A stretch of 64,000 nucleotides of DNA, taken from an uncultured Chromatiales bacterium. Its GTDB lineage: Bacteria; Pseudomonadota; Gammaproteobacteria; Thiohalospirales; Thiohalospiraceae. Each line of letters starts with the position of its first letter. Within the stretch, counting starts at the first letter, position 1. Of the stretch, positions 18,171 to 64,000 are shown piece after piece. The stretch is taken from contig CAZKYF010000028.1 in assembly GCA_964557025.1 (NCBI GenBank), positions 2,555 through 66,554 on the forward strand, in the 5' to 3' direction. Both the position numbers and the translations under genes were made by a program. The notes beneath the pieces are model-generated. The model did not search any database, was not told the origin of the DNA, and saw nothing but the letters and a program-made list of their open reading frames with translations.

Positions 18171-20030
18171 ATGAACAAGAGGGGGACTTTGATGATGGTG
18201 ATGACAGGGACCACTGCTGTGGTGGTGGCCGGGCTGCTGCTGGCCGGTGCGGGTGAAAGCAGGAAGATGACGGGGGCAGGGGAAATGGCCCCGGCCTATG
18301 AAATCCGGGCGGTGGACGGGATGACCCGTGTCGATCGACAGGGGGATTACAGAGGGCAGCGGGAGGTGCGCCTCCGAGCCGCGCGCAACGAGACTGAACC
18401 ATTTCAGGTGGTAGTTTCCGCCCGTCGTGCACCTTTGAAAGTGCTGGACGTGGATCTGACCGATTTGGTTGGACCCAAGGGCAAGCGGATCACCGATGCC
18501 GTACTCTATCGCGCTCACTACGTACCGGTTACCAAACCCTCTCCATTATCCCAGTTTGCGCCTCGGGATTATCCGGATGCGTTAATCCCATTCCGGGATC
18601 CGGTGACCGGACGGGCCTTGAAAGGGGCGAAGTATGACGCCGTACCCTATACCGTGCCGAAAGGGGAGAATCAGCCTTTTTGGGTGGATGTGCGGGTGCC
18701 AAAAGGGGTGCCTGCAGGGGAGTATCGCGGCCGTGTCGTGGTTACTGCAGAGGGAGGATTGCGTGCCGAGCTGCCCGTTACCTTGACGGTATGGGATTTC
18801 ACCCTGCCGGATGTTCCTGCTATGGGCTCGGATTTCGGACTGAACAGTACCCGAGTGGCGGAGATCTACGGATTGGACCCTGAGCGCGATGCGCGCCGTG
18901 TTAACCCATTGATCCGGAAGTACTATGATTTGCTATTCGATCACCTGCTCTCTCCCGCTTTTCTGTTCGATACCCGACCCAACGTAGACCTGGTGACCGG
19001 ACGTCCCGATTTCGGAGCTTTCTATCCAGGACTCGGTACCGCAGCCCAAGGGTTGGAGTACTATATGAATCGCAAACACGCTGCCAGTTACAGTTACCTT
19101 TTTTGGGAACATTCTCCCTTTCAAGAGCCCCTCGGCCGGGATCGGCAGCGAATGATGAATTTCCTTGTCGAGTATGTGAAATATCTGAAGCGGCGCGGCT
19201 GGAGCGATCGGGCACATATGCCTTACGGCTTTCTCGACGAGCCTTCCAGCAAAGAGGCCTATGGGAAGATTCGTGCTTGGGGCAGACTCTTCAATGAGGT
19301 GGAGAAACGGGCTGGAACCCGTGCGCCCCTGATGATCACCGAGCAGCCTGAGCCGGAAGAGACCGAATGGGGGTCTCTAGACGGGTATGTGGATATCTGG
19401 GTACCAGAGTTCAATGCCATCTGGTTGGACGAATACTATGAACAGGGTGCTATCGAGCGGCAATTGAAGGCGGGCAATCAGGTATGGAGCTATGCGGCAC
19501 TGGCCTATGTTCCGTCTGAATGGCACCGCGCTCACCCTTTTAGCCGTACCTTGGTGGATTCCCATCCGCCCAAGTGGCTGATCGATTATGCTCCCATTAA
19601 CTTTCGGATCCCGGCGTGGCTGAATGCCCTTTCTGGTATTACGGGGCTGCTCTATTGGGACACCATCTGGTGGGCAGAGGGTGTAGATGTGTGGCAGGAT
19701 GCCGGTACCTATCGCCATGAGGACAGGAACGATCCTGATAGCTGGGGTACCATCCTCAATGGCGAGGGCTTTCTTATTTACCCGGGATACCGTGCCCAGA
19801 TTGGATTCGACGGGCCGGTGCCTTCCATCCGCCTGAAGTGGTTTCGTGAGGCGGTGGAGGATTACGCCTATATTCAGGCGCTGCGGGATGCTGGGGAATG
19901 GGATTTTGCGCGCCGCCAGATCCGACGTTTTGCCCGTGGGGTGGGGGACTGGGATGACGACATGGACATGCTGTACGAGGCGAGGCGCAAGATGGGGGAG
20001 CGGCTCTCAGCGCTCCAGGGTAAAAAGTAG
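18171..20030 (+). CDS. secreted protein, DUF4091 / glycoside-hydrolase-like family (function unknown)
   Basis: Signal-like N-terminus MMVMTGTTAVVVAGLLLAGAG. NETEPFQVVVSA and VTLTVWDFTLPD resemble DUF4091-type proteins as I recall them. The 3' end overlaps tamB convergently by 24 nt. Confidence 0.7.
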   Translation: MNKRGTLMMVMTGTTAVVVAGLLLAGAGESRKMTGAGEMAPAYEIRAVDGMTRVDRQGDYRGQREVRLRAARNETEPFQVVVSARRAPLKVLDVDLTDLVGPKGKRITDAVLYRAHYVPVTKPSPLSQFAPRDYPDALIPFRDPVTGRALKGAKYDAVPYTVPKGENQPFWVDVRVPKGVPAGEYRGRVVVTAEGGLRAELPVTLTVWDFTLPDVPAMGSDFGLNSTRVAEIYGLDPERDARRVNPLIRKYYDLLFDHLLSPAFLFDTRPNVDLVTGRPDFGAFYPGLGTAAQGLEYYMNRKHAASYSYLFWEHSPFQEPLGRDRQRMMNFLVEYVKYLKRRGWSDRAHMPYGFLDEPSSKEAYGKIRAWGRLFNEVEKRAGTRAPLMITEQPEPEETEWGSLDGYVDIWVPEFNAIWLDEYYEQGAIERQLKAGNQVWSYAALAYVPSEWHRAHPFSRTLVDSHPPKWLIDYAPINFRIPAWLNALSGITGLLYWDTIWWAEGVDVWQDAGTYRHEDRNDPDSWGTILNGEGFLIYPGYRAQIGFDGPVPSIRLKWFREAVEDYAYIQALRDAGEWDFARRQIRRFARGVGDWDDDMDMLYEARRKMGERLSALQGKK

Positions 20031-23000
20031 ATCGATACCGCTATGCTGGCCCGACTCGCTTTCCAGGATCCAGTTCTTGTTGAGCTCGTACCGGGCGCGC
20101 AGGATGTTACCTCCTTCAGTGAGGCCGATCACGTATTGAACATAGAGGCGGGGTGAGAGGTATTTGCCGAGTACCAGGGAAGCGGCATCTTCACCGCTCC
20201 CTGACTCGATGCTTACCTCTTCAATGTCCAACTCTTTACCTAGCCGCTTGGCCAACCAGGTGCCGCCTGCCAGTTGCAGTGAGCGAGCAGCCTGGCTCAC
20301 TCGATCCCCTTCGCTGGTGGTTGCTTCGCGTAGCGGCTTGCCGATGAGAAGGTAGGCGAGGATGTCGCTGTCGTCCATCGGTGGAGTGGAAAAAAGCTGC
20401 AACTCCGGTTGTTTGAGCCGCCCGAACACCAGGATTCCTGCTTCCACGCCCCGTTGCCGACGTACCACCCGGAATTGCAGGCCAGGGTTGGTGAGTGGGC
20501 TGGCAGCATACAGCAGGCGTCCCTCATCGATATTCAGCTTCTGGCCATAAACTTTGTAGCTTCCGTCGTGGATCTCCAGCTCTCCCTGTGCAATGGCAGG
20601 CCGGTTTGGGGCTTCGATGATAGCCAGTTGTCCGCTGATACGGCCCTCGAAACCATGCCCGCTGACTTTGACTTTCTTGCCAAGCTTCAACGCGAGAGTG
20701 GTGGCAATACGCCATCGTTTTTGTGGTGTCTTCCCCTCCTCTCCGATGATCACGACGTCCGGGGAGACCGGGACCAACCCCTGTTTTTCCGGGAGCTGGA
20801 GCTTTGCCCTCGGAATCTCGAGGTACCCTGAGAGCTGGATTACACCAGGTTGAAGCTGGACCTTCAGGTTCGGTGAGGCGATCACCTTCGCTTCAGGGAT
20901 CCGGGCTACCTCCACCTCCTCACCTTTGATGGTGATCCATCCCTTCCAGTGGCTCGGGGAAACGAAGTCCAGTTCGCCGGCGAGGGCGAGAGAACCCGAG
21001 CCCGAGCGAGCGCCGCCAGTGACCGAGAGCCGGCTGCCGTGCAGGGTTCTGGCCAGCAATCTGACCTCGCGCAGGGTGATGCCCAGATCCGGCAGCATGA
21101 GAGAGCCGTCATCCAAACGGATCAGACCGTCGAGCCGAGGGGCGCCGAGGCGGCCTCCGAAAGTGATCTCCCCGCTCAGGTTGCCTGTTGGGTGCTGGAT
21201 GCGAGGGGTGAGTAGCGCCAGCAGGGTAAGGTCGTTGAAGTGCAGGGTCAGGGCTCCGTTTACAGCTTGTTCCTGGCTCAAGGCCTCGGCGAGCGTCCAG
21301 CCTGGAAGTTGCCAGGCGCCATGTGCCCGACCCGTTTTCCGCAGATCCACGTTCAATGTCGCCGTTAGTGCCTCAGGTTGCTTTTCCACCACCAGTGCTA
21401 TTTCCCGATAGGCTACGTCGTAGCGCTCCTCGTCGGGTATGCGGTAGCTGACGCTGCCGTCATGTATGCGAAGTGTGAGACGGCTACCCTCTATTCCGCC
21501 TTTTCGGTAAAGGAGCCGGGCCTCTCCTTCGGCCACTCCGGTGAACGAGAGATCTTCTCGAGGCAGCCAGGGACGCAGCCACGCCAGCCGAAGCTTTTTC
21601 AAAGAGAGATCACCCTGCCATCCTTCCCCTGTGCGTTTCCCTTCCAGGCAGAGATGGGCATCTTTATGTTGCCAGCACCAGGGAGAGAGGAAGGTGGTGT
21701 TCCTGCCAATCTCCAGCCGGGTGGCCTCGCGCTGGCGCCATCGTTGTTTCGGTAGAGCGAGCTCTCCTTTCTTCAGCGTTCCCCGCCAGATACCCCCCTC
21801 CAGCTTCCCAAGAATCTCGCTGTGCAGCCAGGTGGTATTGTCCCGTTCGATGTGCAAGTGAAGCCGGTGGCCATGAGTGAATCCGTCCCCGATGAGGGAG
21901 ACACGGCGGAGCTGCTCTTTTCCCAGAGTCAAACCCTCGATCCCTGCCTCCAGCCGCCACGGCTTTTTTTCCTCCAGACCCAGTTCGGTATCGATGCGGA
22001 TCCGGCGTGCAAGGTGGTTCTTCCAGCGGATCGCCTCTCCATCTAGCACCACTTGGAAAGCAGGGAGCCGACGAGGTCCGGTGATGTGGCCGGAGGCCTT
22101 GACGGAGCCTGCCAGATCCGGCCAGAGATGGGCGAGCTCAGGAGCTGTAAGTTCCCAATTGGCGTTCCAGCGTTTTCCCAGGGTGCCAGATGCGGTAAAG
22201 CGGGCACTGCCGGAAGTCAGTCGTACCTGTTCCAGCTGCAACAGGTTCTCTGTAAAAAGGAAGCGGCCGCTGGCGGCGACTGGGTAACCTCGGATTTTGC
22301 CTGAAAGCTGTTTCAACTCCATCTCAATGTGGTCGGCCCTTCCCTTGCCATCGAGCTGTAGGTCGATGCGACCTCCGGGCCACTTCTCCCAGCCCCGGAC
22401 GGGGTCAATCCCTTCCGCCGAAAGAGCAGCCTGCCAAGTGAAGGAAGGTCGCCACGTCAGTCGACCAGTTCCCTGCCAGAGACCATCCAGCCAATGGGCT
22501 TGCAATTTTCCGATGTGCAGTTCCGAAAGATTGCCGGTTCCATTTAGTTCTAGCACGGCCGGAGAAAACCTGTCGGAAGGGAGCCGGGAATGGATCTCGA
22601 ACTGGTATTTTTCGGGTATCCCTTCGATTCGCAGTTCTCCAGAGGCCGTGAAGGGGGAGCTGGGAGGAGCGTTCCAGTGCCATCGAGAGGAGAGACTGAA
22701 GCGTAGAGCCGCACTGGTCTCTAACCGTCCTGTAGCCTCCGCGGCGCCTTGGGGAGCGGTGATTACAAGCTGCTGGATGGTCAAGGTGGTGTTATGTAGC
22801 TCGCCCTGGAAACCGATCTCCTGGAGAATCACCGGTTTGCTTCCTTCCTGCTGGAAACGAAGATCGCGGACCGTCGCTGTTTCCAGTCGGATGGGGAGTG
22901 GGGAGGAGAATCCTTGGAACGACCGTTGTGGTTCGTTCATCTTTTTTTCTCTCCGGAGGATTTGCAATATCTCCGCTTCTAGGGAGTCTAGCTGGAGTAT

Positions 23001-23267
23001 GCCTTGCAGCAACGACGCGGGTTGCCACCGGAGACGAAGTTGCTTCAAGGTGAGAGTGGTGTGTGAGTCCCGGTAGCGGATGTTATATAGCCGAATCTCA
23101 TCAAGCCACCGGCCCCGAGCGGAAGTGATGGTCAGACGACCGTCACTGAACGATTCCAGCTGGCGGATTGACCATTGCAGGCCGCTCTCGGTCCCCAGCA
23201 GCAATCCTGCGGCGAGGCTGGTGGAGAAGAGCAGGAAAACGGGTAGCCAGAGGAGTCTGCGCATCAC
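20007..23267 (-). CDS. tamB: translocation and assembly module inner-membrane subunit TamB
   Basis: 1086 aa with N-terminal signal-anchor RRLLWLPVFLLFSTSLAAGLLLG, a long beta-rich body, and a DUF490-type C-terminus ...RARYELNKNWILESESGQHSGIDLLFTLER. GTG/ATG start overlaps the tamA stop. Confidence 0.9.
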   Translation of the reverse strand: MMRRLLWLPVFLLFSTSLAAGLLLGTESGLQWSIRQLESFSDGRLTITSARGRWLDEIRLYNIRYRDSHTTLTLKQLRLRWQPASLLQGILQLDSLEAEILQILRREKKMNEPQRSFQGFSSPLPIRLETATVRDLRFQQEGSKPVILQEIGFQGELHNTTLTIQQLVITAPQGAAEATGRLETSAALRFSLSSRWHWNAPPSSPFTASGELRIEGIPEKYQFEIHSRLPSDRFSPAVLELNGTGNLSELHIGKLQAHWLDGLWQGTGRLTWRPSFTWQAALSAEGIDPVRGWEKWPGGRIDLQLDGKGRADHIEMELKQLSGKIRGYPVAASGRFLFTENLLQLEQVRLTSGSARFTASGTLGKRWNANWELTAPELAHLWPDLAGSVKASGHITGPRRLPAFQVVLDGEAIRWKNHLARRIRIDTELGLEEKKPWRLEAGIEGLTLGKEQLRRVSLIGDGFTHGHRLHLHIERDNTTWLHSEILGKLEGGIWRGTLKKGELALPKQRWRQREATRLEIGRNTTFLSPWCWQHKDAHLCLEGKRTGEGWQGDLSLKKLRLAWLRPWLPREDLSFTGVAEGEARLLYRKGGIEGSRLTLRIHDGSVSYRIPDEERYDVAYREIALVVEKQPEALTATLNVDLRKTGRAHGAWQLPGWTLAEALSQEQAVNGALTLHFNDLTLLALLTPRIQHPTGNLSGEITFGGRLGAPRLDGLIRLDDGSLMLPDLGITLREVRLLARTLHGSRLSVTGGARSGSGSLALAGELDFVSPSHWKGWITIKGEEVEVARIPEAKVIASPNLKVQLQPGVIQLSGYLEIPRAKLQLPEKQGLVPVSPDVVIIGEEGKTPQKRWRIATTLALKLGKKVKVSGHGFEGRISGQLAIIEAPNRPAIAQGELEIHDGSYKVYGQKLNIDEGRLLYAASPLTNPGLQFRVVRRQRGVEAGILVFGRLKQPELQLFSTPPMDDSDILAYLLIGKPLREATTSEGDRVSQAARSLQLAGGTWLAKRLGKELDIEEVSIESGSGEDAASLVLGKYLSPRLYVQYVIGLTEGGNILRARYELNKNWILESESGQHSGIDLLFTLER

Positions 23268-25006
23268 ATGTCCGGTCCGATGCTGAGATGAATCCGCCAG
23301 GGACGATCCGGTTCAAGGAAAGCGGAGGCCAAATCAAGACGCAGGGTTCCCACTGGCAGGAACCAGTGTAATCCCAATCCGGCACTCTGTTTGAGTGTGA
23401 TTTCATTGAAGGAGTCGAAAGCATTGCCGGTGTCAAAAAAGACGGCAATGGCGAAGTTTCTGGCAAAAGGGAACTCGTATTCCACGCTGCCGGTCAGCAA
23501 ATGTTTACCACCAAGTACCCGGCCCTGCTCGTCGGTGGGCCCCAAGGATGCATAGCGATATCCGCGGACGCTACGATCACCACCGGTGAAGAAACGCTGG
23601 GAGGCGGGGAGCTCAGCCAGTTCCGCCAACCAGCTCACACCGATCTCAGCGCGAGAGATGAGCCGTCCCCACTCGCCAAAGGCATGGATGAAACCGGTAC
23701 CGAAACGGGTCTGGATGAAGCTGGTGTTGGAGAGTAACAATTCCGATGCCCCCTTCAGGGTGGCGCTGGCATGCCAGCCCCGTTTGGTATGAATGCGGTT
23801 ATCGGCTTCTACATACTGCAGGGTGATCAGTGGAATGAGCAGGGCGGAATAGTCCGATGCACCAGCCACTTGGTAATCCTCAATTTCATAGGTGATAGCG
23901 ATGGTACGCTGCAGATGGCGCAACTTGTGGTTGGCACTAATTCCAATCTTGCGGGTTTTGCGACGGCTGGTATCAGTTTGTTCATTGATCGAGGCAGCAA
24001 TCAGCTCAGCGTAATCGCTCTGTGGCCGTTCCAGGGGAATGCGATATCGGGCGGTGGCTTCCTGACGGATCTCGGAGATCCGCACATCGCCGCTGATCTT
24101 GTAGCCCAGGTAGTTGTGATAGCGTCGTTCGATGCCAAAACTGATCCGGGGGCCGGTATCTGTTCCATACCCCAGGCCAGTGGTGTAGCGGGTGGGTTTG
24201 CGAGGTTCCAGTGCCACTTCAATGGGGATCTGTCGATCGTGCGCTTGTTCCGGCAATGGCTGAACTTCTACCCGCTGGTAGTAACCGCTGTTGCTCAGTG
24301 AGCGTTGCAGCTCGAGCAGCTTGTCAGCGTCGTAGGGGTCTCCCGGCTGGAAAGGGAGATAGCGGCGCAGCAAGGATTCCTTGAGGATATCCTGCTGGAA
24401 GGTGACCTGGCCGAACCGGTAGCGGGGACCCGTGTCCACCTCCAACCGCAGGGTTGCGGTGTAACGATTCAGATCCACCCTGATCTCGTGTTGCTCCAGT
24501 TTGTATTCCAGATATCCCCGATCCTGCAACAATTGCAACAACGCCTGTTTGGCACTTTCGTAATCCGGGTGGCGTAGCACCTTTCCTTCACGCAATGGGA
24601 ATCGTTTCCGCCACCGCTGCAGCATACGGTCGGTTGCACCTTCGCCACGGATCGCAACAGTTACTTTGGAGAGACGCACGGGGGGACCGGGTTGGATCCG
24701 GTACCTTGCTTTCCAAATCCCGCCTTCGTGGACGAGATGGGCAACGATTTTCGGTTTGTAATAGCCGAACGGCTGGAGAGCGGTGCGGATCTCACGTTCG
24801 GCCCGCCGGTGCAGGCGGAAGATGGTCGCTTCGTCCAGTGGTGTCTTGTCGGCCAATCGTTGCTGCAAGGTGAGGTTGGCGTAAATGTTGGTCTTGAGCT
24901 CTCCTTTGACTCCCTTCACCGAGATCTCCAGTTTCGGGGCTGCCGTTCCTGCCAGGGAACCGCTCGACGACAACAACAACAGGCCGATGAGCAGCAGCCG
25001 CCTCAT
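23264..25006 (-). CDS. tamA: translocation and assembly module outer-membrane subunit TamA (Omp85 family)
   Basis: I trimmed to ATG 25006 (MRRLLLIGLLLLSSSGSLAGTA signal peptide). POTRA-like repeats are followed by an Omp85 barrel, directly upstream of tamB. Confidence 0.9.
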   Translation of the reverse strand: MRRLLLIGLLLLSSSGSLAGTAAPKLEISVKGVKGELKTNIYANLTLQQRLADKTPLDEATIFRLHRRAEREIRTALQPFGYYKPKIVAHLVHEGGIWKARYRIQPGPPVRLSKVTVAIRGEGATDRMLQRWRKRFPLREGKVLRHPDYESAKQALLQLLQDRGYLEYKLEQHEIRVDLNRYTATLRLEVDTGPRYRFGQVTFQQDILKESLLRRYLPFQPGDPYDADKLLELQRSLSNSGYYQRVEVQPLPEQAHDRQIPIEVALEPRKPTRYTTGLGYGTDTGPRISFGIERRYHNYLGYKISGDVRISEIRQEATARYRIPLERPQSDYAELIAASINEQTDTSRRKTRKIGISANHKLRHLQRTIAITYEIEDYQVAGASDYSALLIPLITLQYVEADNRIHTKRGWHASATLKGASELLLSNTSFIQTRFGTGFIHAFGEWGRLISRAEIGVSWLAELAELPASQRFFTGGDRSVRGYRYASLGPTDEQGRVLGGKHLLTGSVEYEFPFARNFAIAVFFDTGNAFDSFNEITLKQSAGLGLHWFLPVGTLRLDLASAFLEPDRPWRIHLSIGPDM

Positions 25007-25010
25007 GGGG

Positions 25011-25613
25011 TCAGTGATGCCGGGTGCTGGATGCGCTGCCTGGGGCGGCCAGGCCGCCAGTGAGTACGAACCGCATGGCATCCTCCTTGGAGAGGTTGAG
25101 TGGCGTCACCCGTGAGCGAGGAACCAGTACCGTGTGCCCGCCGATCATATAGCCGAGTGGAATGTAGACCACGAGTTCTTCCCCGTTTTCGCCAGGAAGA
25201 TCGTCGAGGTTGTTGCGGGTGACGAAACCGATGACCCGAAGACCGTTGTCCATGTGAACGGTGACGACTTGTTGAAACTCGTTGTCGGAGGATTGGGAAA
25301 TGAAGGCGAGCAGATCCCGGATGGAACCATAGATGGACTTGATCAAAGGGATGCGGTAGAGCAGCCGCTCCCACCAGGTGAAGACGGTGCGCACCAGCCA
25401 GGAACGCATCATCAGCCCCGCCAGGAACACCAGCAGCAGACTGACCGCTACTCCGGTGCCGGGAATGTAGTACTGTTCCGGCAAGATCATGCGGACGGCG
25501 CGCCCGAGCAGCGATTCCGTGGTGACGGCGAGCCAGTAAAGGAAATAGAGTGTGGCTGCGATGGGGACCAGGGTGACCAGGCCGGTGAGAAAGGTGGTGT
25601 TCAGTTTGGACAT
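25011..25613 (-). CDS. DUF502 family membrane protein
   Basis: The N-terminus MSKLNTTFLTGLVTLVPIAATLYFLYWL is typical of DUF502. It has two TM segments. 200 aa. Confidence 0.8.
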   Translation of the reverse strand: MSKLNTTFLTGLVTLVPIAATLYFLYWLAVTTESLLGRAVRMILPEQYYIPGTGVAVSLLLVFLAGLMMRSWLVRTVFTWWERLLYRIPLIKSIYGSIRDLLAFISQSSDNEFQQVVTVHMDNGLRVIGFVTRNNLDDLPGENGEELVVYIPLGYMIGGHTVLVPRSRVTPLNLSKEDAMRFVLTGGLAAPGSASSTRHH

Positions 25614-55400: not shown

Positions 55401-55934
55401 TCAGGGGATTTGCTTTTTCGAAAGCTGTTTCTGGACTGTCAGTTCAAGACGTTTGTCTAGGCCAAGGATCTCGATGGTGGAGTAGTTTTCCGCCGGGATC
55501 TGTACCAGTACACAGGGATGTGTGATGACTGCTGCGACCAAGGCGTCGGGTTTTGGGGTGTGGAATAGCAGCCAGAGCCTCCCCATCCCTTTCTGGACGG
55601 TAAAAGGGGGCGTATTGAGTGAGAGTGAGTATCCTGCAGTAGGTCTTTCCCCCGCGGAGACATAGACCACCCGCCAGTAACGGAAATCAATGACCGGCAG
55701 GGCAGGAGTGGAAGAAGAGAGTATCGAACCACGCAACCGGCTTGCCATACGCTGCAGCTGCTCCTGGTTGTTGATCAGCATGGCTTGAGGTTCCTTTGTG
55801 CTGGCTTTGCATTGGATTGCAGAGTCCAGTATCCGCACCGCTCCCCGCATTGTTCCGGCGTGATTAGCAGAGGGCAGGGTACAGCCTGCCAGTAGCAGAA
55901 GTAGCAGCGAGAGAGAGAGCCGTAAGTCAGTCAT
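55401..55934 (-). CDS. lipoprotein with PrcB_C-like domain (protease-complex accessory subunit-like)
   Basis: ATG 55934 overlaps the S8 gene stop by 8 nt. Lipobox LLLLLLAGC. YVSAGERPTAGYSLSL...ITHPCVLVQIP resembles the G-x-x-P-T-G-G-Y core of the PrcB C-terminal domain. The family call is from memory. Confidence 0.55.
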   Translation of the reverse strand: MTDLRLSLSLLLLLLAGCTLPSANHAGTMRGAVRILDSAIQCKASTKEPQAMLINNQEQLQRMASRLRGSILSSSTPALPVIDFRYWRVVYVSAGERPTAGYSLSLNTPPFTVQKGMGRLWLLFHTPKPDALVAAVITHPCVLVQIPAENYSTIEILGLDKRLELTVQKQLSKKQIP

Positions 55935-58506
55935 GGGCAATTCGGGAGAAGCTTGGTCGTGATGATGTGGGTTTCCCTTCGCTTAACGCTTGCAAGATGA
56001 TGTCGAAGTTGGTACCGAAATTGATACCGTCCTTTTCACCTTGGACTTCAATGGGCTGAAGGCGTTCAATGGTAGGATAGCCGCCGCATGCTTCCCCGGG
56101 ATCGCAAATCTCCCCATCGTCATCCAGATCGGTGCCGGCAACGACGAAATAGCGTCCGGCAGGGACCTGATCGAATCTGTAGCGATAGCTACCATTCAGA
56201 TTGTCTGCTTGAGTGGTGCGTATGGTTTTCAGGGTATCTGGTTCCACTAAAATGAAGTAAAGGTGGCCAGTGTTTCCTTTCTCATGGGGCTGGCCCACTT
56301 GAAGGGTGACCGGGATTGAGAGGCTGGCGGTGGTATCGGTCTGCAATACAATGGTGGCCCGATAGACCCCTTCGACCAGTAAAGTGCGATCCACTGTAAC
56401 GGTGAAAGTGCCTTCGCTGCCATCGATGGATGGGGGATCCACAACCAGCCAATCGGCATCGTCTGTCACCGCAGTAATGGAAAATTCGCCACCTCCGGCA
56501 TTGCGGGTGGAGAAAGTGAGTTGGTTGATGAATGGACCGAAATCCAGGGGGCCGGTGTGATCGATGGCAAGTACCGGGGGGAGGGATATGTTGATGTTTT
56601 CCACCGCCTTTAGGGCATCGAGAAGGCCATAACCGAAGAGATCGTCGCGGCCAGTGGCCCCGAGATCGATGGTCAGTTTTCCGGTCTCCAGCAAAGTGGT
56701 GAAGCGGTCGGGATCCAGTCCGGGATCGAGGGACTTCATGATCGCTGCCACCCCGGCCACGTGCGGGGTTGCCATGGAGGTCCCCTGGGCGAAGGAGTAA
56801 ACGGGCTTGCGTGTAGCGGAGGTGTCGTCCACCAGGGTGCTGAGGACACCATCGAAATAGCCATCGCCATCGCTGTCCACGGCAGTGTTTCCTCCGGGGG
56901 CGGCAATGTCCACCGTGGGTCCGAAATTGGAGTAAGGGGCCCGTTGTTGCCCCATGGTGACCGCGCTGACGGAGATAACGCCATCGTATGCCGCTGGATA
57001 ACTGGGCAGATTGCTGTTGTCATTACCAGCGGCCGCCACCACAATGACCCCCGCCTCGCGGACCGCATTGTATTCCGCCTGTTCAGTCATCGAAAAGCCG
57101 GGGCCGCCGAGGCTGAGGTTTATGATGTCTGCCCGTTGCGGTGGCACGGTCCCTGAATCATTGCTTAGCCCTGCGGCGTAACGGATTCCTTGAATGATGT
57201 CGTACGTAGTACCGCCGCCTCGGCCGAGCACCCGGATTGGCATGATTCGCGTGTTGGTGCCCCAACTGATACCGGTCACCCCGGTGCCATTGTTTGCCAG
57301 TGCAGCGATGGTACCCGCCACGTGGGTGCCGTGGAAAGAGCTTCCCCCCGGTGTGGCGTTGTCGCCTGGATCGTCCGGGTTGTCGTCGATACCATCTCCG
57401 TCTCCGGCGATGGAGGGGTTGGATATGAAATCATAGCCGCTGTCGAGAAGATTGGCCTCTAAATCCGGATGGGCAAGAAAAACGCCGGTGTCCACAACGG
57501 CGACAATCACCTGTTTGGCATTACCGTTTGGCAATGTAGTAACTTCCCATGCCTGAGGCAGATTGATTAAGGGGAGATTCCATTGCAACGGATAGTGTTC
57601 ATCGTTCGGTATCGCAGCGGCCCGTCGGATATAGTTGAGATCGGCTGTTTCTATGTCGGGACGCAAACGAAGTGCCTTGACCGTTTCAATGGTCTCCCGT
57701 TTCAGTTGCTCGATGGCGGATTCCTGGTCGTTCACCGAAGCCATCCGTATCCCCAGCGCTTGTCGGATGTGTTGTCGTTGTATCGCGTCACCCAGGGAGA
57801 AAAGGATGGGTTGTCCCGGGGCTCCCTGTTTAGGAATCAGGCCTGTGGAGGCAGCAAGCAGTTCGGGAGCGGAGGCAGCGCTCATGGGATCGTCATTTTC
57901 CCTGAAACGGACGATGATCTCACCGGCAACGAAAGGCGGTTGCTCTTGTGCGGCGAGAGTTGCAGGTTGTCCGATAGTGAGTAGATAGTTCGAGGCGCCA
58001 CGGATGGAGCGTACAAATATATAGTAGCTGCCGCTGTCGGGAATACGGATGGTCTCCGTGGAAGAGGTGCTGCTGATGGAGTAGGCTACCGGTCGAGTGT
58101 CGATGTTAATCTCGGCAGTGTTATAGATTTCGATGTCCAGATCAATGGCGTAGGGATCGGTGGGATCATGGTCGCTAATGAAGAGGGTGATGGCCTGTCC
58201 CTTCGCCAGAGTTGCCTGATAGACATCAGTGCTGTCACCTTGTTCGGCAAACTTGCCGTGGCCCACACCGATACGGGAGACGAAGCCCCCGACCAGCACC
58301 GGATTAGGCAACGGCTGGGCAGTGGAAGGGGTATCGTTGGTTTTGAAGGGTGCGCTGGCATCATTGACATCACCATCCACCGTGACCCCGATGGCAGAGG
58401 TGACATTCCCGCTTAAGGCAAAGGAGGGAGGAGTATCGCTGGAATTTCTGTCGCAGCCACCCAGTGCCAGAGCGATCAGTACTGTAAGCAAGAGGCGCTT
58501 GCTCAT
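55927..58506 (-). CDS. S8 (subtilisin-family) serine peptidase lipoprotein with N-terminal PPC-like and C-terminal beta-sandwich domains
   Basis: I trimmed to ATG 58506 (MSKRLLLTVLIALALGGC lipobox). Catalytic triad VAVVDTGV / HGTHVAGTIAA / GTSMATPHVAGVAA. It has a pre-peptidase-C-terminal-like module (VYQATLAKGQAITLFISDHDP...YIFVRSIRGASNYLLTI). Confidence 0.9.
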   Translation of the reverse strand: MSKRLLLTVLIALALGGCDRNSSDTPPSFALSGNVTSAIGVTVDGDVNDASAPFKTNDTPSTAQPLPNPVLVGGFVSRIGVGHGKFAEQGDSTDVYQATLAKGQAITLFISDHDPTDPYAIDLDIEIYNTAEINIDTRPVAYSISSTSSTETIRIPDSGSYYIFVRSIRGASNYLLTIGQPATLAAQEQPPFVAGEIIVRFRENDDPMSAASAPELLAASTGLIPKQGAPGQPILFSLGDAIQRQHIRQALGIRMASVNDQESAIEQLKRETIETVKALRLRPDIETADLNYIRRAAAIPNDEHYPLQWNLPLINLPQAWEVTTLPNGNAKQVIVAVVDTGVFLAHPDLEANLLDSGYDFISNPSIAGDGDGIDDNPDDPGDNATPGGSSFHGTHVAGTIAALANNGTGVTGISWGTNTRIMPIRVLGRGGGTTYDIIQGIRYAAGLSNDSGTVPPQRADIINLSLGGPGFSMTEQAEYNAVREAGVIVVAAAGNDNSNLPSYPAAYDGVISVSAVTMGQQRAPYSNFGPTVDIAAPGGNTAVDSDGDGYFDGVLSTLVDDTSATRKPVYSFAQGTSMATPHVAGVAAIMKSLDPGLDPDRFTTLLETGKLTIDLGATGRDDLFGYGLLDALKAVENINISLPPVLAIDHTGPLDFGPFINQLTFSTRNAGGGEFSITAVTDDADWLVVDPPSIDGSEGTFTVTVDRTLLVEGVYRATIVLQTDTTASLSIPVTLQVGQPHEKGNTGHLYFILVEPDTLKTIRTTQADNLNGSYRYRFDQVPAGRYFVVAGTDLDDDGEICDPGEACGGYPTIERLQPIEVQGEKDGINFGTNFDIILQALSEGKPTSSRPSFSRIAHD

Positions 58507-58706
58507 CCTTTGGCCCCGAGAGCTGTTTTTCGGCAGTATGGTTCGGTGGATGTTGGAAAAAACATGAGTCAAGTCAGAAATTACTGACCTTTTAAATCGG
58601 CTGCGAATCCGGTTTCTGAAGGAACGCCTATTCTCATGATGAGGTGCTCTAAAAAGAGACGACAGGCTTGGTTCCGGCAAGACAGAAGCCCTTTCATGAC
58701 TGGCAT

Positions 58707-58736
58707 TTTACATGCTTAAGATTTTCCTTGTATAAT
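58707..58736 (+). promoter_or_regulatory. candidate sigma70 promoter of the giant surface-protein gene
   Basis: TTTACA (58707-58712), an 18-nt spacer, then TATAAT (58731-58736), in an AT-rich divergent intergenic region about 90 nt upstream of ATG 58825. Confidence 0.5.
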
Positions 58737-58824: not shown

Positions 58825-61800
58825 ATGCGCTGTTTTCCCGTTTCTGCGAGCGATGAATGTTTATTTTTCTCCTGTGTATCCCGGTCTTGCAAATGTTTGA
58901 TCGGGGTTGCGGTCATTCTGCTTTCATGTTGGCCAAAGACCAATTTGCTGGCCAAGGGGGAGGTGACTGATATCTATTCGATACAGGGTGATGCAACAAT
59001 GCAAACCCAGTACGTCGAAGCAGGGAACAGCTATCTCTGGGGACAGGGAAACGATGGTCAGGGAACCGGTGGTGATCGACTGATCGAAGGTTTTTCCTTG
59101 GACAATGGAGCCACTCGTTATGAGTATCAACGGGTGGCCGACATGGTGCGGATTGTGCGTACCAGTGCGGCGACACCATGTGGCCTATTCGCAGAAACCA
59201 CGGGAAACGTCCGTTCTTATCGACCTGATTTTCCGGGGAACCCGGATGGCAGTGGCTGTGACATGGCTGTGGTTATGGCGGGACGGGTGATCAATGTGGG
59301 GGTGCTGGACCTGTTCAACAACGCCGGGGCTGCGGGAAAGAATGTCGAGCGGGTGGATTTCATATTCAACGACGGTATCTTCGTGGCACAACCGGCAGGT
59401 TCAGGTCACGTAGTGACCGAGAAGTCCGGAAACAACAATGTGAAAATTGCAGCGATTCTTTCCCTTGATGGGTCCGGCAATCCGGCCTCCTACGGTCCCC
59501 TGATCGAAGTCCATGCCCATGCGGGTACGCCCAACATTGGTTGCCCGAACCCGGCTACCGATATCTGTTACGGTGTTCCGAACGATCCATGGAGCATCGA
59601 ATATCTTCACACTGCCGATGCCGGTACGCCCCCCACGAGGGTCGGCGGCGCCGCCGAGTCGATGGGATTGGCGTTTGTCTCCCAAACTGACCTGGGATTG
59701 TCCCAGGGAGAGACCTATTACGGTTTTTCCTATTTTGCGCCGGATGTGGATGCCGCGGTGCATACCCTTACCGATCCTGCCTCCTTTCCGGGGAATACTG
59801 ATGCGGCTAACCGTGGTCCTGGTGACGCCGATCTGCATGGGGGAACCGCCGGTCTCTTCGTACTGACGACTTTGCTGAAAAATGTCACGGGAGATGTGGT
59901 GGATTCGGCGAGTAACGGTATTTCCGCCGTAACCATCCAGCTCTATCGTGACGATGGTGATACTCCGGGCAGATATGATCCCAATGACTCCTTGTTGCAG
60001 ACCACGGAGACGGATGCTGGTGGATCATTCATTTTTACCCGGGTGCTGGCGGGTGACTACATCATTCGGGTGGATGCCGCTGACAGTGATCTGGCGACGC
60101 CTGGCTATACCACCGCAACGGATGCCTTGGCCATTACGGTGGATGGTACGGATTTGACTGGTCAGCGATTCGTGTTTGCACTGCCGGTTATCAGCGGAAG
60201 TGTGTTCATCGACAGGAACGAAAATGGGGTTCTCGACAGTGGAGAAGAGGCCCAGGGTGTGACGCTCCGTCTCTTTGCAGATGCAGCGATGCAGCTCCAG
60301 ATTGGAGAAGATGTGCGAAGTGGAGCTGACGGTGCCTTCTCCATGGGTGGTGTACCGAACGGCACTTACTATCTGTTTGTGGATCAGGGAAGCGCTCCAT
60401 CACTGGCTGATCTTATTGGTGGCAGTGACAATCCATTGGAGGTAACCGTGAGCGGTGGCAGCGATGTCAACGTCGTGTTTCCTTTCACCATCCGGCCTCC
60501 GGTGGTCTGGACCTTGAACGGTAGCGTGTTCTTGGATGTTGATGGTAACGGGCAGCAGAATGGAAGCGGTGAACCTGGGGTTGGACAGATTACGGTAATG
60601 CTCTATGACACCGCGGGTAATCAGGCCGGATCCCTCGATACTGACGAAGGTGGAGGATTCACGTTTGATGGGGTATTGGCCGGTGAGTACACCTTGCAAC
60701 TGGACTCAGCCGATCTCCCGAGGGGCTATGCGCTTTCGACTGATTACGACCTTGTTCCCGTGACGTTGCAAGATGACGTGAGTCTCCTGATCCCGCTGAG
60801 CGTGGATCATGACGGAGACGGGGTTGTTGATGACGAGGACCTCGATGACGACAACGACGGCATCCTCGATACCGCTGAAAGGAAAGCGGGGAGCGATGTG
60901 GATACTGATGGAGATGGTATCGTTGATCGGCTGGATCGGGACAGTGACAATGATGGGATTCTCGATGCATTTGAATCGGGTGCCGTACGGATAACGGTGC
61001 AAGATGGATATGTTGCTGGGACTGCAGGTCCCAATGGATTGCCGGATGCGGTGGAAAGCGGTAGTGAAACCGGTATGGTGAACTATGGAACCCCAAGGGA
61101 CAGTGATGGGGACGGTGTACCGGATTTTTTGGATCTGGATTCCGACAACGATGGGATTACGGACGTCATCGAGGCGGGAGGAATCGACGAAGAGCCTGAT
61201 GGCCGTCTCGGTGACGCTTTGTCCCCGCAGGTGGATGAGTGGGGACTGTCTAGTGGTTGGGTGAATGTTCCTGCGGATACCGACGGAGATGGTATCCCGG
61301 ATTACCTGGAATTGGATTCCGATGCTGACACCATAAAGGATGTGGTCGAGGCGGGATATGAAGACCGTGATAGGGATGGAGTAGTAGACGATTTCTCCGA
61401 TCCCGATGGGGATGGTGCTGGCAATCCCGCCGGATTTAGTTCGTTCCTCAAGCTTCCAGACAAGGACTCCGACGGCGTGCCGGACTATCGGGAGAAAGAT
61501 ACCCTGCCACGCCTGGAAACCGGTCTGAACGGCATGGGTTGTATGGTGGGCAGCAACCGTTCGCTGGATCCATTGTTCCCATTACTAGTGCTGGTCTCCC
61601 TGTTCCATCTGTTTGGAAAACAGCGCGGGAATGAAAACCGGGGTGGAGCACGGCGGGATGCGGCATCTGTTGTTTTGGCAGGACTGATTCTGATGACAGT
61701 TCCGGCCGTTTCAATCAGTGCAGAAGAAGGCTTTGCAGGCCGTTGGTACGGGAGTATCGGCGTAGGATTGTCCGAACTGGAGCCGGATCCCAATAGCACT

Positions 61801-62688
61801 GTTTATACCAATGAGGAAACCCGGAGCAGCGGTGGCAAGCTGACACTCGGCTATGATTGGTCGGAACGCTTCAGTATCGAAGCCTATTATGCTGATCTGG
61901 GCGAAGCAAGGATTGGCAGCACGGTTCCGGTGGTTGCTGGCGGCACAATCGAATACAAGGACTATGGTTTGAGCGGTCTTTATTATCTCTACAAACAATA
62001 CAACACCCGTCGTGGCTTGGGTGTATTTGCCCGTGCTGGTGTGGGAAAGATGGAAAACAGGACCGATCTTCCCTATAAGCGGCTGAACGATGAACACCTT
62101 TTGTTTGGTATTGGCTTCGAATACGGATTTTCCAATGGCCTGGCTTTGCGCTCCGAGTTGGACCAATATGACACTGATTCCCGCCTGTTGACCCTCAGCT
62201 TATTAAAACGTTTTGGAAGCAAAGGACAGCGAGAGGAACCTCGACCTGTGGCGAAGCTCGATACAGAACCTGGGGCCGCTGAGTTGTCTACGTTGCCGGC
62301 GCCTTCTGCATCACGCACGGTGAAAAAGGAGAAGGAGAAGAAGAAAGTAAAACTGGGGGAGTTGGGTACTGTCTATTTTCCTTCTGACTCGGCGGATCTG
62401 AATCAGGCAGCGAACAACATTCTGGAAGAGATAGTTGCCGAACTGCAACGTGTTCCGGATGTCGTTATCGACGTGGAGGGGCACACCGACAGCCGGGGAT
62501 CCGATGCGTATAATCTGGCCTTGTCGGAAAGACGAATCGAGGCAGTCATCAGTTATCTGACTGCCCGCGGAATCGCGCGGCATCGCTTGAAGGCGAAACC
62601 ATATGGCGAACGACATCCGGTAGCAAGCAATGCAACGCCGCAGGGACGGCAGTTGAATCGTCGGGTCGAACTTCGCGAACACAAATAA
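58825..62688 (+). CDS. giant surface protein: unknown N-domain + 3 SdrD-B/Cna-B-like modules + thrombospondin type-3 repeats + OmpA-like barrel + OmpA C-terminal peptidoglycan-binding domain (possibly two fused genes)
   Basis: ATG 58825 is 9 nt after AAGGA; the track ORF starts at TTG 58777. Modules: VTGDVVDS...GDYIIRVD, ISGSVFIDRNENG...GTYYLFVD, LNGSVFLDVDGNG...GEYTLQLD. About ten DxDxDGxxD loops. The C-terminus VYFPSDSADL...VEGHTDSRGSDAYNLALSERRIEAV...NRRVELRE is a canonical OmpA_C. See the finding on the junction at 61531-61796. Confidence 0.8.
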   Translation: MRCFPVSASDECLFFSCVSRSCKCLIGVAVILLSCWPKTNLLAKGEVTDIYSIQGDATMQTQYVEAGNSYLWGQGNDGQGTGGDRLIEGFSLDNGATRYEYQRVADMVRIVRTSAATPCGLFAETTGNVRSYRPDFPGNPDGSGCDMAVVMAGRVINVGVLDLFNNAGAAGKNVERVDFIFNDGIFVAQPAGSGHVVTEKSGNNNVKIAAILSLDGSGNPASYGPLIEVHAHAGTPNIGCPNPATDICYGVPNDPWSIEYLHTADAGTPPTRVGGAAESMGLAFVSQTDLGLSQGETYYGFSYFAPDVDAAVHTLTDPASFPGNTDAANRGPGDADLHGGTAGLFVLTTLLKNVTGDVVDSASNGISAVTIQLYRDDGDTPGRYDPNDSLLQTTETDAGGSFIFTRVLAGDYIIRVDAADSDLATPGYTTATDALAITVDGTDLTGQRFVFALPVISGSVFIDRNENGVLDSGEEAQGVTLRLFADAAMQLQIGEDVRSGADGAFSMGGVPNGTYYLFVDQGSAPSLADLIGGSDNPLEVTVSGGSDVNVVFPFTIRPPVVWTLNGSVFLDVDGNGQQNGSGEPGVGQITVMLYDTAGNQAGSLDTDEGGGFTFDGVLAGEYTLQLDSADLPRGYALSTDYDLVPVTLQDDVSLLIPLSVDHDGDGVVDDEDLDDDNDGILDTAERKAGSDVDTDGDGIVDRLDRDSDNDGILDAFESGAVRITVQDGYVAGTAGPNGLPDAVESGSETGMVNYGTPRDSDGDGVPDFLDLDSDNDGITDVIEAGGIDEEPDGRLGDALSPQVDEWGLSSGWVNVPADTDGDGIPDYLELDSDADTIKDVVEAGYEDRDRDGVVDDFSDPDGDGAGNPAGFSSFLKLPDKDSDGVPDYREKDTLPRLETGLNGMGCMVGSNRSLDPLFPLLVLVSLFHLFGKQRGNENRGGARRDAASVVLAGLILMTVPAVSISAEEGFAGRWYGSIGVGLSELEPDPNSTVYTNEETRSSGGKLTLGYDWSERFSIEAYYADLGEARIGSTVPVVAGGTIEYKDYGLSGLYYLYKQYNTRRGLGVFARAGVGKMENRTDLPYKRLNDEHLLFGIGFEYGFSNGLALRSELDQYDTDSRLLTLSLLKRFGSKGQREEPRPVAKLDTEPGAAELSTLPAPSASRTVKKEKEKKKVKLGELGTVYFPSDSADLNQAANNILEEIVAELQRVPDVVIDVEGHTDSRGSDAYNLALSERRIEAVISYLTARGIARHRLKAKPYGERHPVASNATPQGRQLNRRVELREHK
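60805..61500 (+). repeat. thrombospondin type-3-like Ca-binding repeat array (coding)
   Basis: Iterated Asp-rich loops: DHDGDGVVDDED, DDDNDGILD, DTDGDGIVD, DSDNDGILD, DSDGDGVPD, DSDNDGITD, DTDGDGIPD, DRDRDGVVD, DPDGDG, DSDGVPD. Confidence 0.8.
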
Positions 62689-63258: not shown

Positions 63259-64000
63259 ATGCGTAACAGAACCGGATTCAAGAATTCCTCCAACGGTCGT
63301 TGTGGAGCCATCTGCCGACGGGTAGTTTTCCTTGGCCTGCTTGTCGTTCCGCTGAGTTTTGTTCAGGCTGCTTTCGAAGGAGTGGTCGATGGCCAGCTCG
63401 CCGCATTAGGAGACAAGGAGGGAGGTGTCGCATGGGCGGACTTCAACGGAGATCACTGTCTGGATGCTGCCATTGCCACCGATCAAGGGGCTCTCGTGTA
63501 TCAACAGAGAAGCGTTGAAGGAAGTTGCAGTGGAACGTTTTCCCTCGCTGCCAGCTTCAATGATGCAGTACCTGTCCGTTCAGTGATCTGGGGTGATTTC
63601 GACAACGATGGACAGGTCGATCTGGCGATTAACGCCTCACGTCTGGTGGTTGTTCTCGACAACACGAATGGTCAGGCATCCGGATTTACTGTTGCTGCGC
63701 GGCTTACCCCTGGCAACTCTGAAGGAATGGCCTGGATCGATCACGATGCCGATGGCGATCTCGATTTGTTACTGGAAAACAATGATTTCGGATTGCGGAT
63801 CTATCTTAACGATGCTGGGCTGAGCAATGAGCGTTATGTGGATATTCATACAGGAGCTGTCAACGGTGAGTATTTGGCGGCCACTGATCTCGATGCTGAT
63901 GGCGACGTGGATTTCTATGTGCGTCGCCCCGGGACGGCAGACACCGATGCCGAGGCGGATCTGTTCATTAACCAGAATGGAGTTTTTTCCCGCAACGTTA
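63259..64000 (+). CDS. FG-GAP/VCBS-repeat secreted protein (ASPIC/UnbV-like), 5' part; continues beyond window
   Basis: Not in the ORF track because there is no stop inside the window. ATG 63259 is 7 nt after GGAG. My translation is MRNRTGFKNSSNGRCGAICRRVVFLGLLVVPLSFVQA (signal) followed by ADFNGDHCLD, WGDFDNDGQVDL, WIDHDADGDLDLL and ATDLDADGDVDFY. These are FG-GAP-type Ca-binding loops. Confidence 0.8.
   Translation, partial: MRNRTGFKNSSNGRCGAICRRVVFLGLLVVPLSFVQAAFEGVVDGQLAALGDKEGGVAWADFNGDHCLDAAIATDQGALVYQQRSVEGSCSGTFSLAASFNDAVPVRSVIWGDFDNDGQVDLAINASRLVVVLDNTNGQASGFTVAARLTPGNSEGMAWIDHDADGDLDLLLENNDFGLRIYLNDAGLSNERYVDIHTGAVNGEYLAATDLDADGDVDFYVRRPGTADTDAEADLFINQNGVFSRNV

Follow-up and report, generated by a model that had tools for sequence, protein, structure and literature searches.

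A single reading frame joining an adhesin-like protein, an internal JDVT-CTERM-type sorting tag, and an OmpA-type protein in uncultured Gammaproteobacteria

We analyzed a 64,000-nucleotide (nt) stretch of DNA from an uncultured Chromatiales bacterium (GenBank assembly GCA_964557025.1, contig CAZKYF010000028.1, positions 2,555 to 66,554; hereafter, the window), focusing on one long gene. Positions 58825 (ATG) to 62688 on the + strand form one uninterrupted open reading frame (ORF) of 1,287 amino acids (aa), with its stop codon at 62686 to 62688. The product, P0121, combines an adhesin-like passenger, an internal sorting tag, a predicted internal signal peptide, and an OmpA protein, and its orthologs (1,288 to 1,371 aa) have the same parts in the same order. 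Features described below lie on the + strand unless noted. P0121 opens with a Sec signal peptide (58825 to 58953; aa 1 to 43, ending NLLA/KGE), whose cleavage site is predicted from the sequence and where residues A43, K44, G45, and E46 are identical across four orthologs. A conserved N-terminal domain of ∼300 aa follows (58954 to 59880; 61 to 64% identity to orthologs). This domain had no match in Pfam and no sequence match in the PDB, and AlphaFold2 (AF2) modeled it with a predicted local distance difference test score (pLDDT) of 31 from a 4-sequence alignment. The passenger continues with Ig-like repeats of the CarboxypepD_reg/SdrD_B/SpaA type (59884 to 60780; Pfam SdrD_B, 71.2 bits; CarboxypepD_reg, 54 bits) and with an Asp-rich array of bacterial TSP3 calcium-binding repeats (60785 to 61518), which TSP3_bac matched in four stretches at 28.1 bits (cutoff, 25). 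Across the whole of P0121, hydropathy analysis detected three strongly hydrophobic segments: one in the N-terminal signal peptide (aa 21 to 37), and two between passenger and OmpA, at aa 914 to 931 (helix 1) and aa 945 to 965 (helix 2).

The TSP3 end of the ORF is closed by GMGCMVGSNRSLDP (61531 to 61572), within the signature motif TGLNGMG-C-MVGSNRSL-DP (61519 to 61572). The Cys codon at 61540 to 61542 encodes Cys906, the sole Cys of the tag, and the Asp lies at C+9. Next comes helix 1 (LFPLLVLVSLFHLF; 61573 to 61614), supported by hydropathy, conservation, and an AF2 helix and predicted to be the tag's transmembrane segment and a stop-transfer anchor, with the basic stretch GKQRGNENRGGARR (61615 to 61656) directly 3′ of it. 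These elements resemble JDVT-CTERM, a tag class defined by a single invariant Cys, by a DP that is nearly invariant and stands nine residues after it, and by a Leu-rich transmembrane segment and an Arg cluster (Haft 2023, bioRxiv 10.1101/2023.06.07.544157). The T, G, L, G, C, D, and P of the motif were invariant in seven fused relatives, and the spacing from C to D was nine in 13 of 14 fused representatives, the window reading C-MVGSNRSL-DP-LFPLLVLVSLFHLF. In NCBIfam, JDVT-CTERM (NF033191) was the only sorting-tag match of the segment, with no MYXO-CTERM match listed, and the internal tags of relatives passed the JDVT-CTERM hidden Markov model (HMM) at 32.2, 40.7, 42.3, and 34.7 bits (cutoff, 27). 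On this evidence, the first element of the junction reads as a JDVT-CTERM-type tag, the client signal of the myxosortase-family protease MrtJ. P0121 is nevertheless not a standard JDVT-CTERM protein, because its tag is followed by 381 residues after the Cys instead of lying at the extreme C terminus and because this copy falls below the HMM cutoff. It is a variant of the JDVT/MrtJ system and belongs to a family of fused proteins conserved in Gammaproteobacteria.

Between the two helices lies the basic loop GKQRGNENRGGARRD (61615 to 61659; +5/−2), predicted to be cytoplasmic. Its net charge was positive in all 14 fused representatives, which fits that location, and the loop appears to serve both as the basic tail of the tag and as the n-region of an internal signal peptide. 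The second hydrophobic stretch (61657 to 61722) ends in SISA and is followed by EE. Within it, helix 2 and its c-region (AASVVLAGLILMTVPAVSISA; 61660 to 61722) are predicted to form an internal signal peptide with a signal peptidase I site at 61722/61723. Standalone OmpA homologs have N-terminal signal peptides with which this segment aligned; both share small end residues (usually Ala), acidic residues next, and a distance of 5 to 8 residues to the RWYG strand. Among the 14 fused representatives, the uncharged stretch of helix 2 likewise ends in Ala or another small residue, with E or D next in most. By this alignment, helix 2 and the signal peptides at the N termini of standalone OmpA relatives are homologous. 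In P0121, however, the n-h-c segment is found at aa 932 to 966 and not at the N terminus, where OmpA-family proteins have the Sec signal peptide that precedes the barrel. In several fused relatives, a lipobox (VLAGC, LVAC, LTGC, LSGC, LSSC, or ASGC) stands where helix 2 ends; these comprise five Granulosicoccaceae loci (L035, L036, L039, L041, and L044) and the proteins P0204, P0207, P0253, and P0275. Such variants would represent an internal lipoprotein signal peptide, with an OmpA-like lipoprotein freed from the middle of the precursor.

The remainder of the ORF comprises an 8-stranded OmpA-type beta-barrel (61744 to 62214), a Pro/Lys-rich linker (62215 to 62358), and an OmpA_C peptidoglycan-binding domain (62359 to 62679). 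OmpA_C matched PF00691 at 70.9 bits (gathering score, 27.2), and Pfam OmpA_membrane scored 17.7 bits, under its cutoff of 21. From a 29-sequence alignment, AF2 modeled both the barrel and OmpA_C at pLDDT >90 and the linker as disordered, with low pLDDT. Foldseek matched the model to full-length E. coli OmpA (E = 5e-15), to the OmpA transmembrane domain (TMt, 0.66 to 0.72; E, ∼1e-10), and, for OmpA_C, to the C-domains of OprF and Pal (TMt, 0.8 to 0.9). According to these models, the C-terminal part folds as a complete OmpA, with an 8-stranded barrel and a peptidoglycan-binding domain. Much of this layout had been anticipated by an earlier reading of the DNA (hereafter, the original prediction). 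All of its coordinates and translations for the ORF, motif, helix, basic stretch, and second hydrophobic stretch were reproduced. Its TSP3 label agrees with the four TSP3_bac stretches, and it had rightly recognized a C-terminal-type sorting signal of the MYXO-CTERM/GlyGly-CTERM class, here narrowed to JDVT-CTERM features. Its signal-peptide-like second helix with an AxA site and its complete downstream OmpA protein were likewise borne out, by the alignment to standalone OmpA signal peptides and by Pfam, AF2, and Foldseek.

The single ORF is shared by relatives. A homolog search with the N-terminal 945 aa recovered P0121 itself (contig k141_71799, 67,459 nt) together with its orthologs. P0122 to P0126 (48 to 62% identity; 1,288 to 1,371 aa) have OmpA in the same single ORF, and the distant P0127 to P0129 and P0132, which carry unrelated cadherin-like passengers, have an identical C-terminal order including OmpA in one ORF. 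The ortholog contigs come from independent metagenome assemblies, samples, and assemblers (P0122 on two contigs, P0124 on four, and P0126 on six). Across the junction, alignments retained, in frame, TGLxGxG-C-x8-DP, helix 1, a basic loop of 3 to 25 residues, and helix 2, then Ala or another small residue, mostly acidic residues, and the F..RWYG of barrel strand 1. Since the order of tag, helix, basic loop, helix, and AxA is kept in orthologs and in dozens of distant relatives, it lies far beyond chance. The ortholog locus L008 is fully syntenic with the window. As a separate observation, the loop of ortholog P0124 contains an A9 run (L010:13013-13021) encoding its KKK. A 1-nt slip there would bring a stop within ∼6 codons (KKKKGG*); the resulting adhesin would lack OmpA and end in a true C-terminal JDVT tag, and the length of the run could support transcriptional or replicative slippage.

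A junction-profile scan of species-representative genomes yielded 44 loci, mostly from uncultured Gammaproteobacteria (hydrothermal metagenome-assembled genomes [MAGs], Chromatiales, Granulosicoccaceae, Thiohalomonadaceae, and Thiotrichales), plus one from Nitrospirota. A canonical JDVT tag was fused in frame to OmpA at 9 of the 44 loci, and ∼10 more were fused via variant tags in long ORFs, so that ∼19 of the 44 species-level loci were fused overall. About 13 of the 44 were split, with a tag, a stop codon, and a separate OmpA gene. The Nitrospirota locus (L055; MAG OFTM308) holds a complete split cassette of JDVT-tagged client, OmpA, and MrtJ, outside the Pseudomonadota of the original description. 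A profile search of 1.84 billion representative proteins gave 596 matches at E ≤ 0.001, of which the best 150, as clusters at 50% identity, were tallied as fused or standalone. Among these best 150, the tag was matched internally in 39, and the barrel lay deep in a long protein in 34, mostly behind Gly-rich, Cys-less tripartite tags; these 73 were fused, and the other 77 were apparently standalone or fragmentary. Some of the Gly-rich, Cys-less tags of fused relatives passed the cutoffs of GlyGly-CTERM (TIGR03501) or GC_trans_RRR/TIGR03382. Very long proteins were among the relatives: P0241 (7,284 aa), P0259 (3,516 aa), and P0244 (2,446 aa) carry an internal tag, a signal peptide, and an OmpA module at their C-terminal end. 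The tag-signal peptide-OmpA module is thus attached to many different giant passengers.

Related genomes also carry the unfused parts, in the order client-OmpA-MrtJ. At L005, a second cassette further downstream contains an FG-GAP/TSP3 client ending ...LQTGLKGVGGCALNPNASFDPVLLLMLLGAPLYLFRTRRRGNGGQSA* at a true C terminus. The homology of this end to the motif, helix, and basic cluster of the window is clear, and a separate OmpA gene follows 33 nt later. The end of this split paralog (...GVGGCALNPNASFDPVLLLMLLGAPLYLFRTRRRGNGGQSA*) scored 43.5 bits on the JDVT-CTERM HMM, with its cutoff of 27. After the cassette, a 133-aa Rce1-like gene is a bona fide MrtJ (NF033192; 100 bits; cutoff, 75). L008 has an uncalled MrtJ gene in the same position, ∼5 kb downstream; at both loci, the FG-GAP gene is followed by a separate OmpA gene and then by MrtJ. 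MrtJ came directly after OmpA in 12 split cassettes and lay downstream of the fused gene at L020. Fused genes and MrtJ occurred together in the genomes of L008 and L020 and in S140_32 and Dive96_bin10.247, the last two having a split cassette with MrtJ in addition to a fused gene. In the window, an FG-GAP gene begins at 63259 and runs off the window (64000) and the contig. Its orthologs at L005 and L008 are the FG-GAP/TSP3 JDVT-CTERM clients, and this genome probably has two JDVT-type clients.

At L005:12754, L008:17657, and L026:983, only one TAG and four sense codons stand between client and OmpA, which share a reading frame, so the loss of one stop codon, or readthrough, would yield a fused hairpin protein. 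A general preference of split pairs for the same frame, considered as a hint of readthrough, was rejected: 3 of 11 pairs shared a frame, all three closely related, which is at the level of chance. In the closest relatives, L001 and L005, the syntenic slot, flanked by a divergent S8 peptidase/PrcB pair and by the downstream FG-GAP gene, holds an OmpA gene alone (L001:8001-9128, 375 aa; L005:8001-9176, 391 aa), with a long N-terminal extension. The extension of P0001 (LPWRGSVTTGLFSRRSAAG...) is weakly similar to the window (LPWRGSVTTGL-F-SRRSAAG versus ...LPRLETGL...LFGKQRG..ARRDAAS). A tblastn search for a passenger remnant 5′ of the OmpA-only genes at L001 and L005 found none. The resemblance would fit, and hints at without demonstrating, a deletion of the passenger, the Cys motif, and helix 1.

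Taking the continuous ORF of the window and its orthologs together with the defining JDVT features of the tag and the unfused gene order of related genomes, we consider it likely that this locus is a genuine, conserved gene fusion encoding an envelope precursor, in which the adhesin's internal JDVT-CTERM-type tag runs into a former OmpA signal peptide. The single precursor is probably cut into two partner proteins. In the proposed pathway, the N-terminal signal peptide would open Sec export of the passenger, and helix 1 would then halt transfer, leaving the basic loop in the cytoplasm. Acting as an internal signal peptide, helix 2 would restart export and be cut after SISA by signal peptidase I, freeing OmpA for insertion into the outer membrane by the beta-barrel assembly machinery (BAM) and for peptidoglycan binding. 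Following the proposal made for MYXO-CTERM and MrtX, the invariant Cys would be modified and the intramembrane protease MrtJ would take off the tag, so that the adhesin could be displayed at the surface, probably beside its OmpA partner. The remaining hairpin of ∼55 residues would be discarded. Several observations weigh against this interpretation. The window tag scored 18.7 and 19.5 bits on the JDVT-CTERM HMM, under the cutoff of 27. The region after helix 1 is less Arg-rich than usual for the class, GKQRGNENRGGARRD having five K/R and two acidic residues. AF2 confidence was low for the two short helices. Finally, MrtJ was not found in the window or at L007, and the contig ends inside the next gene. 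MrtJ is not visible in this genome because the contig stops within the FG-GAP gene, and we infer its presence from synteny with L008.

The low tag score would also suit a genuine fusion that stays unsplit, with the hairpin retained as an inner-membrane anchor or the tag a decaying relic and one large polypeptide as the product. We regard this as unlikely. Across fused lineages, purifying selection clearly acts on the Cys, on the DP, and on the small residues in which helix 2 ends; without processing, there is little reason for a lipobox to stand at this last site; and at L001 and L005 OmpA works alone in the same syntenic slot. Furthermore, barrel strand 1 begins ∼8 residues past helix 2, so an uncleaved protein could not reach or insert into the outer membrane. 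The order of passenger and then C-terminal barrel resembles a type Va system and raises the question of an autotransporter-like (type V) protein, in which the barrel would export the N-terminal passenger through its own pore. This is very improbable: the barrel is 8-stranded and of the OmpA type by AF2 and Foldseek rather than the 12-stranded barrel of autotransporters, and the Pfam scan gave no match to an autotransporter domain. An 8-stranded OmpA-type barrel is too narrow for passenger export. In addition, two hydrophobic helices and a basic loop separate the passenger from the barrel, and homologous systems encode both parts separately, beside a dedicated tag protease.

A different set of alternatives concerns the reading frame at the junction. 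The original prediction saw two gene-sized units that a 1-nt change in a T4 run (61673 to 61676) had joined, and offered four explanations: a homopolymer sequencing error, a recent 1-nt deletion, a slippage site (phase variable or frameshifting), or a genuine fusion with an internal helical hairpin. The local features it pointed to do exist: GGAG at 61645 to 61648, a +1-frame ATG at 61658 to 61660 (MRHLLFWQD*), the T4 run, and a TAG at 61794 to 61796 in the third frame. Two gene-sized units are indeed joined, but not by a change in the T4 run, as orthologs keep one ORF. In the case of an error in sequencing or assembly, or of a very recent T5-to-T4 deletion, the true state would be an adhesin gene and an OmpA gene starting at ATG 61658. 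A frameshift was the reading initially favored in our analysis, on the basis of standalone OmpAs and the split cassette of L005. A query with the OmpA half and a T5-repaired N terminus returned ∼30 close homologs, all of them standalone OmpAs of 331 to 420 aa, and their own signal peptides aligned column for column with the repaired start; split cassettes are also present in relatives. However, this word-indexed search did not return P0121 or its fused orthologs, despite their sharing almost the whole query, presumably because of candidate selection. Alone, it would have backed the wrong conclusion, which the search with the N-terminal half reversed. The frame is open in fused orthologs at 48 to 62% identity from independent assemblies, and three-frame analysis of the DNA of L008, L010, and L013 found no +1-frame ATG or Shine-Dalgarno (SD) sequence in the loop and helix 2 region. 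One continuous ORF in orthologs that lack the +1-frame SD and ATG is a result that the original prediction had named for its refutation, and the frameshift reading is refuted by it.

Nor are the features around the T4 run unusual for this gene. The +1 frame of the ORF contains 76 ATGs, which arise because an Asp GAT codon followed by a codon starting with G creates them; 10 have an SD-like core 5 to 11 nt upstream (3 with GGAG). The ORF also holds 48 homopolymer runs of at least four bases, among which T4 runs are common. An ATG near a T4 run is therefore expected by chance, and the GGAG, ATG, and T4 of 61645 to 61676 are best regarded as chance features whose function is unsupported. Inserting a fifth T does give a plausible signal peptide, as originally predicted, but it is not needed. 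The in-frame RGGARRDAASVVLAGLILMTVPAVSISA already has n-, h-, and c-regions unrepaired, RGGARR-DAASVVLAGLILMTVPAV-SISA being a regular n-h-c signal region, and T5 changes six residues with no gain while adding a 45-aa Arg-rich junk tail to the adhesin and an overlap of ∼140 nt with OmpA. The name k141_71799 points to assembly of the contig from short reads, and HrpA, AcrB, HtpG, and TamA/TamB are intact over their full profile lengths in the window, so the assembly is not prone to frameshifts. A repair by two indels (A4 to A5 at 61617 to 61620, giving GKTARE* and an ATGA overlap onto ATG 61631, plus T4 to T5) was considered and rejected, the orthologs having neither feature. Error or recent deletion is accordingly an extremely improbable account. 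As for a programmed frameshift or phase-variable slippage at T4 that toggles between fused and separate products, a homopolymer does lie between the out-of-frame ATG and the OmpA frame. However, the position of the run and the alternative-frame start are not conserved at L008, L010, and L013, and the +1 ORF has only nine codons and no counterpart in orthologs. A T4 run is also too short for slipped-strand phase variation, and we give this mechanism next to no credence. The fourth explanation, a genuine fusion with an internal hairpin, agrees with the in-frame junction kept in orthologs, and the natural ORF fusion is conserved and of long standing rather than the outcome of a recent mutation at the T4 run.

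Recognition of a genuine fusion at this locus removes a false alarm: the gene is neither frameshifted, nor a pseudogene, nor subject to a phase switch, and annotation pipelines should leave it whole and unflagged. It also links the little-studied JDVT-CTERM/MrtJ system with an OmpA-type partner dedicated to it, both where the two are split (client-OmpA-MrtJ) and where they are fused. A wider claim, for which the chances seem to us slightly less than even, is that several tag classes (JDVT-CTERM and GlyGly-like) are recurrently followed by a signal peptide, of type I or of the lipoprotein kind, and a dedicated OmpA-like protein, and that these proteins constitute bacterial envelope polyproteins. 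If true, each polyprotein would pass through the inner membrane as a helical hairpin, and two membrane proteases would divide it into a surface adhesin with a lipid anchor and the adhesin's own outer-membrane/peptidoglycan anchor. Tag clients would then generally need a private OmpA-type partner, and the TraA/TraB arrangement would be generalized well beyond myxobacteria. The natural fusions offer ready substrates for studying the action of myxosortase-type proteases on internal tags, the cutting of internal signal peptides in bacteria, and the role of the OmpA partner in display.

Upstream of the fused gene, on the − strand, lie a divergent S8 peptidase of PrtP/mycosin-like type (ORF, 55927 to 58680; called start, 58506; 131 to 141 bits, below equivalog cutoffs) and a divergent PrcB-like protein (ORF, 55401 to 55940; called end, 55781; also below equivalog cutoffs). 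This pair (55401 to 58680) is reminiscent of the dentilisin PrcB/PrtP pair and adjoins the fused-gene or OmpA slot at L001, L005, L007, and L008; it may be functionally linked to the adhesin. A promoter-like site, TTTACA-18-TATAAT (58707 to 58736; 11/12 match), lies ∼90 nt 5′ of the ORF start and is a consensus match alone. The promoter and terminator scan gave a total not above shuffle expectation and no promoter-like site at the junction on the + strand. An intact TamB/TamA pair (20007 to 25081, − strand) is ordinary housekeeping, possibly relevant to the assembly of large surface proteins.

Among known systems, clients of GlyGly-CTERM and rhombosortase are similar in having a tripartite tag after a TGL.G.G-type motif, and many fused relatives have Gly-rich, Cys-less tags followed by the same signal peptide and OmpA module, whereas the Cys and DP present in the window tag are those of the JDVT class. 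Viral glycoprotein polyproteins, such as the bunyavirus glycoprotein precursor, use alternating stop-transfer and internal signal sequences and are split by signal peptidase. The parallel is a mechanistic analogy alone, without homology and with the viral case set in the eukaryotic endoplasmic reticulum. By its tag, P0121 resembles JDVT-CTERM/MrtJ (NF033191 and NF033192) of Gammaproteobacteria, with its tripartite tag of single Cys, DP, Leu-rich helix, and basic cluster, and relatives L008 and L005 have a bona fide MrtJ in the same gene cluster. The description of that system gives a two-gene neighborhood of client and MrtJ, typically with one client per genome, and does not mention OmpA or internal tags (Haft 2023, bioRxiv 10.1101/2023.06.07.544157). 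In contrast, the window tag is internal and under the HMM cutoff, the OmpA partner is fused or, in split cassettes, lies between client and MrtJ, and these genomes have at least two clients.

For the pairing of a tagged adhesin with an OmpA-like partner, the nearest precedent is TraA and TraB of Myxococcus xanthus, together with the fused MXAN_5598 of that species. TraA (a MYXO-CTERM adhesin) and TraB (OmpA-like) act together and their ORFs overlap by 4 bases (PMC3325183; PMC11980579), and cleavage of the TraA tag by MrtX was shown experimentally, MrtX also being functional in heterologous expression (PMC11980579). In both systems, a surface adhesin has a Cys-containing tripartite tag and is coupled or fused to a downstream barrel partner with an OmpA domain; the TraA tag is cut by a CPBP protease of the myxosortase family, to which MrtJ likewise belongs. 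Fusion guarantees 1:1 co-synthesis of adhesin and OmpA, as translational coupling does for TraA/TraB. The two differ in that TraA and TraB are separate proteins of another phylum, with a MYXO-CTERM tag and MrtX as protease, and TraA has a PA14 domain and Cys-rich repeats. P0121 scored 73 bits on the TraB model (cutoff, 700), via the generic OmpA_C domain, well short of TraB homology. Our literature search for a tag, an internal signal peptide, and OmpA in combination found one prior description, a remark on M. xanthus MXAN_5598. In that remark, an internal MYXO-CTERM is followed by an outer-membrane beta-barrel and an OmpA domain; the protein is called atypical and probably a gene fusion, and its N-terminal part is proposed to be processed and surface anchored (PMC11980579). 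The same passage cites LPXTG and PGF-CTERM tags that function mid-protein (refs 45 and 46 of PMC11980579). MXAN_5598 thus shares with P0121 its overall architecture and a proposed origin from two genes, as compared with its published description. It differs in its MYXO-CTERM tag and in being a rare single case, and the remark makes no mention of a second helix with the role of an internal signal peptide or of split and fused pairs across lineages. In the searched literature, the fused form is represented by this one atypical Myxococcus protein; among marine and hydrothermal Gammaproteobacteria it is common, and it is also found with other tag classes.

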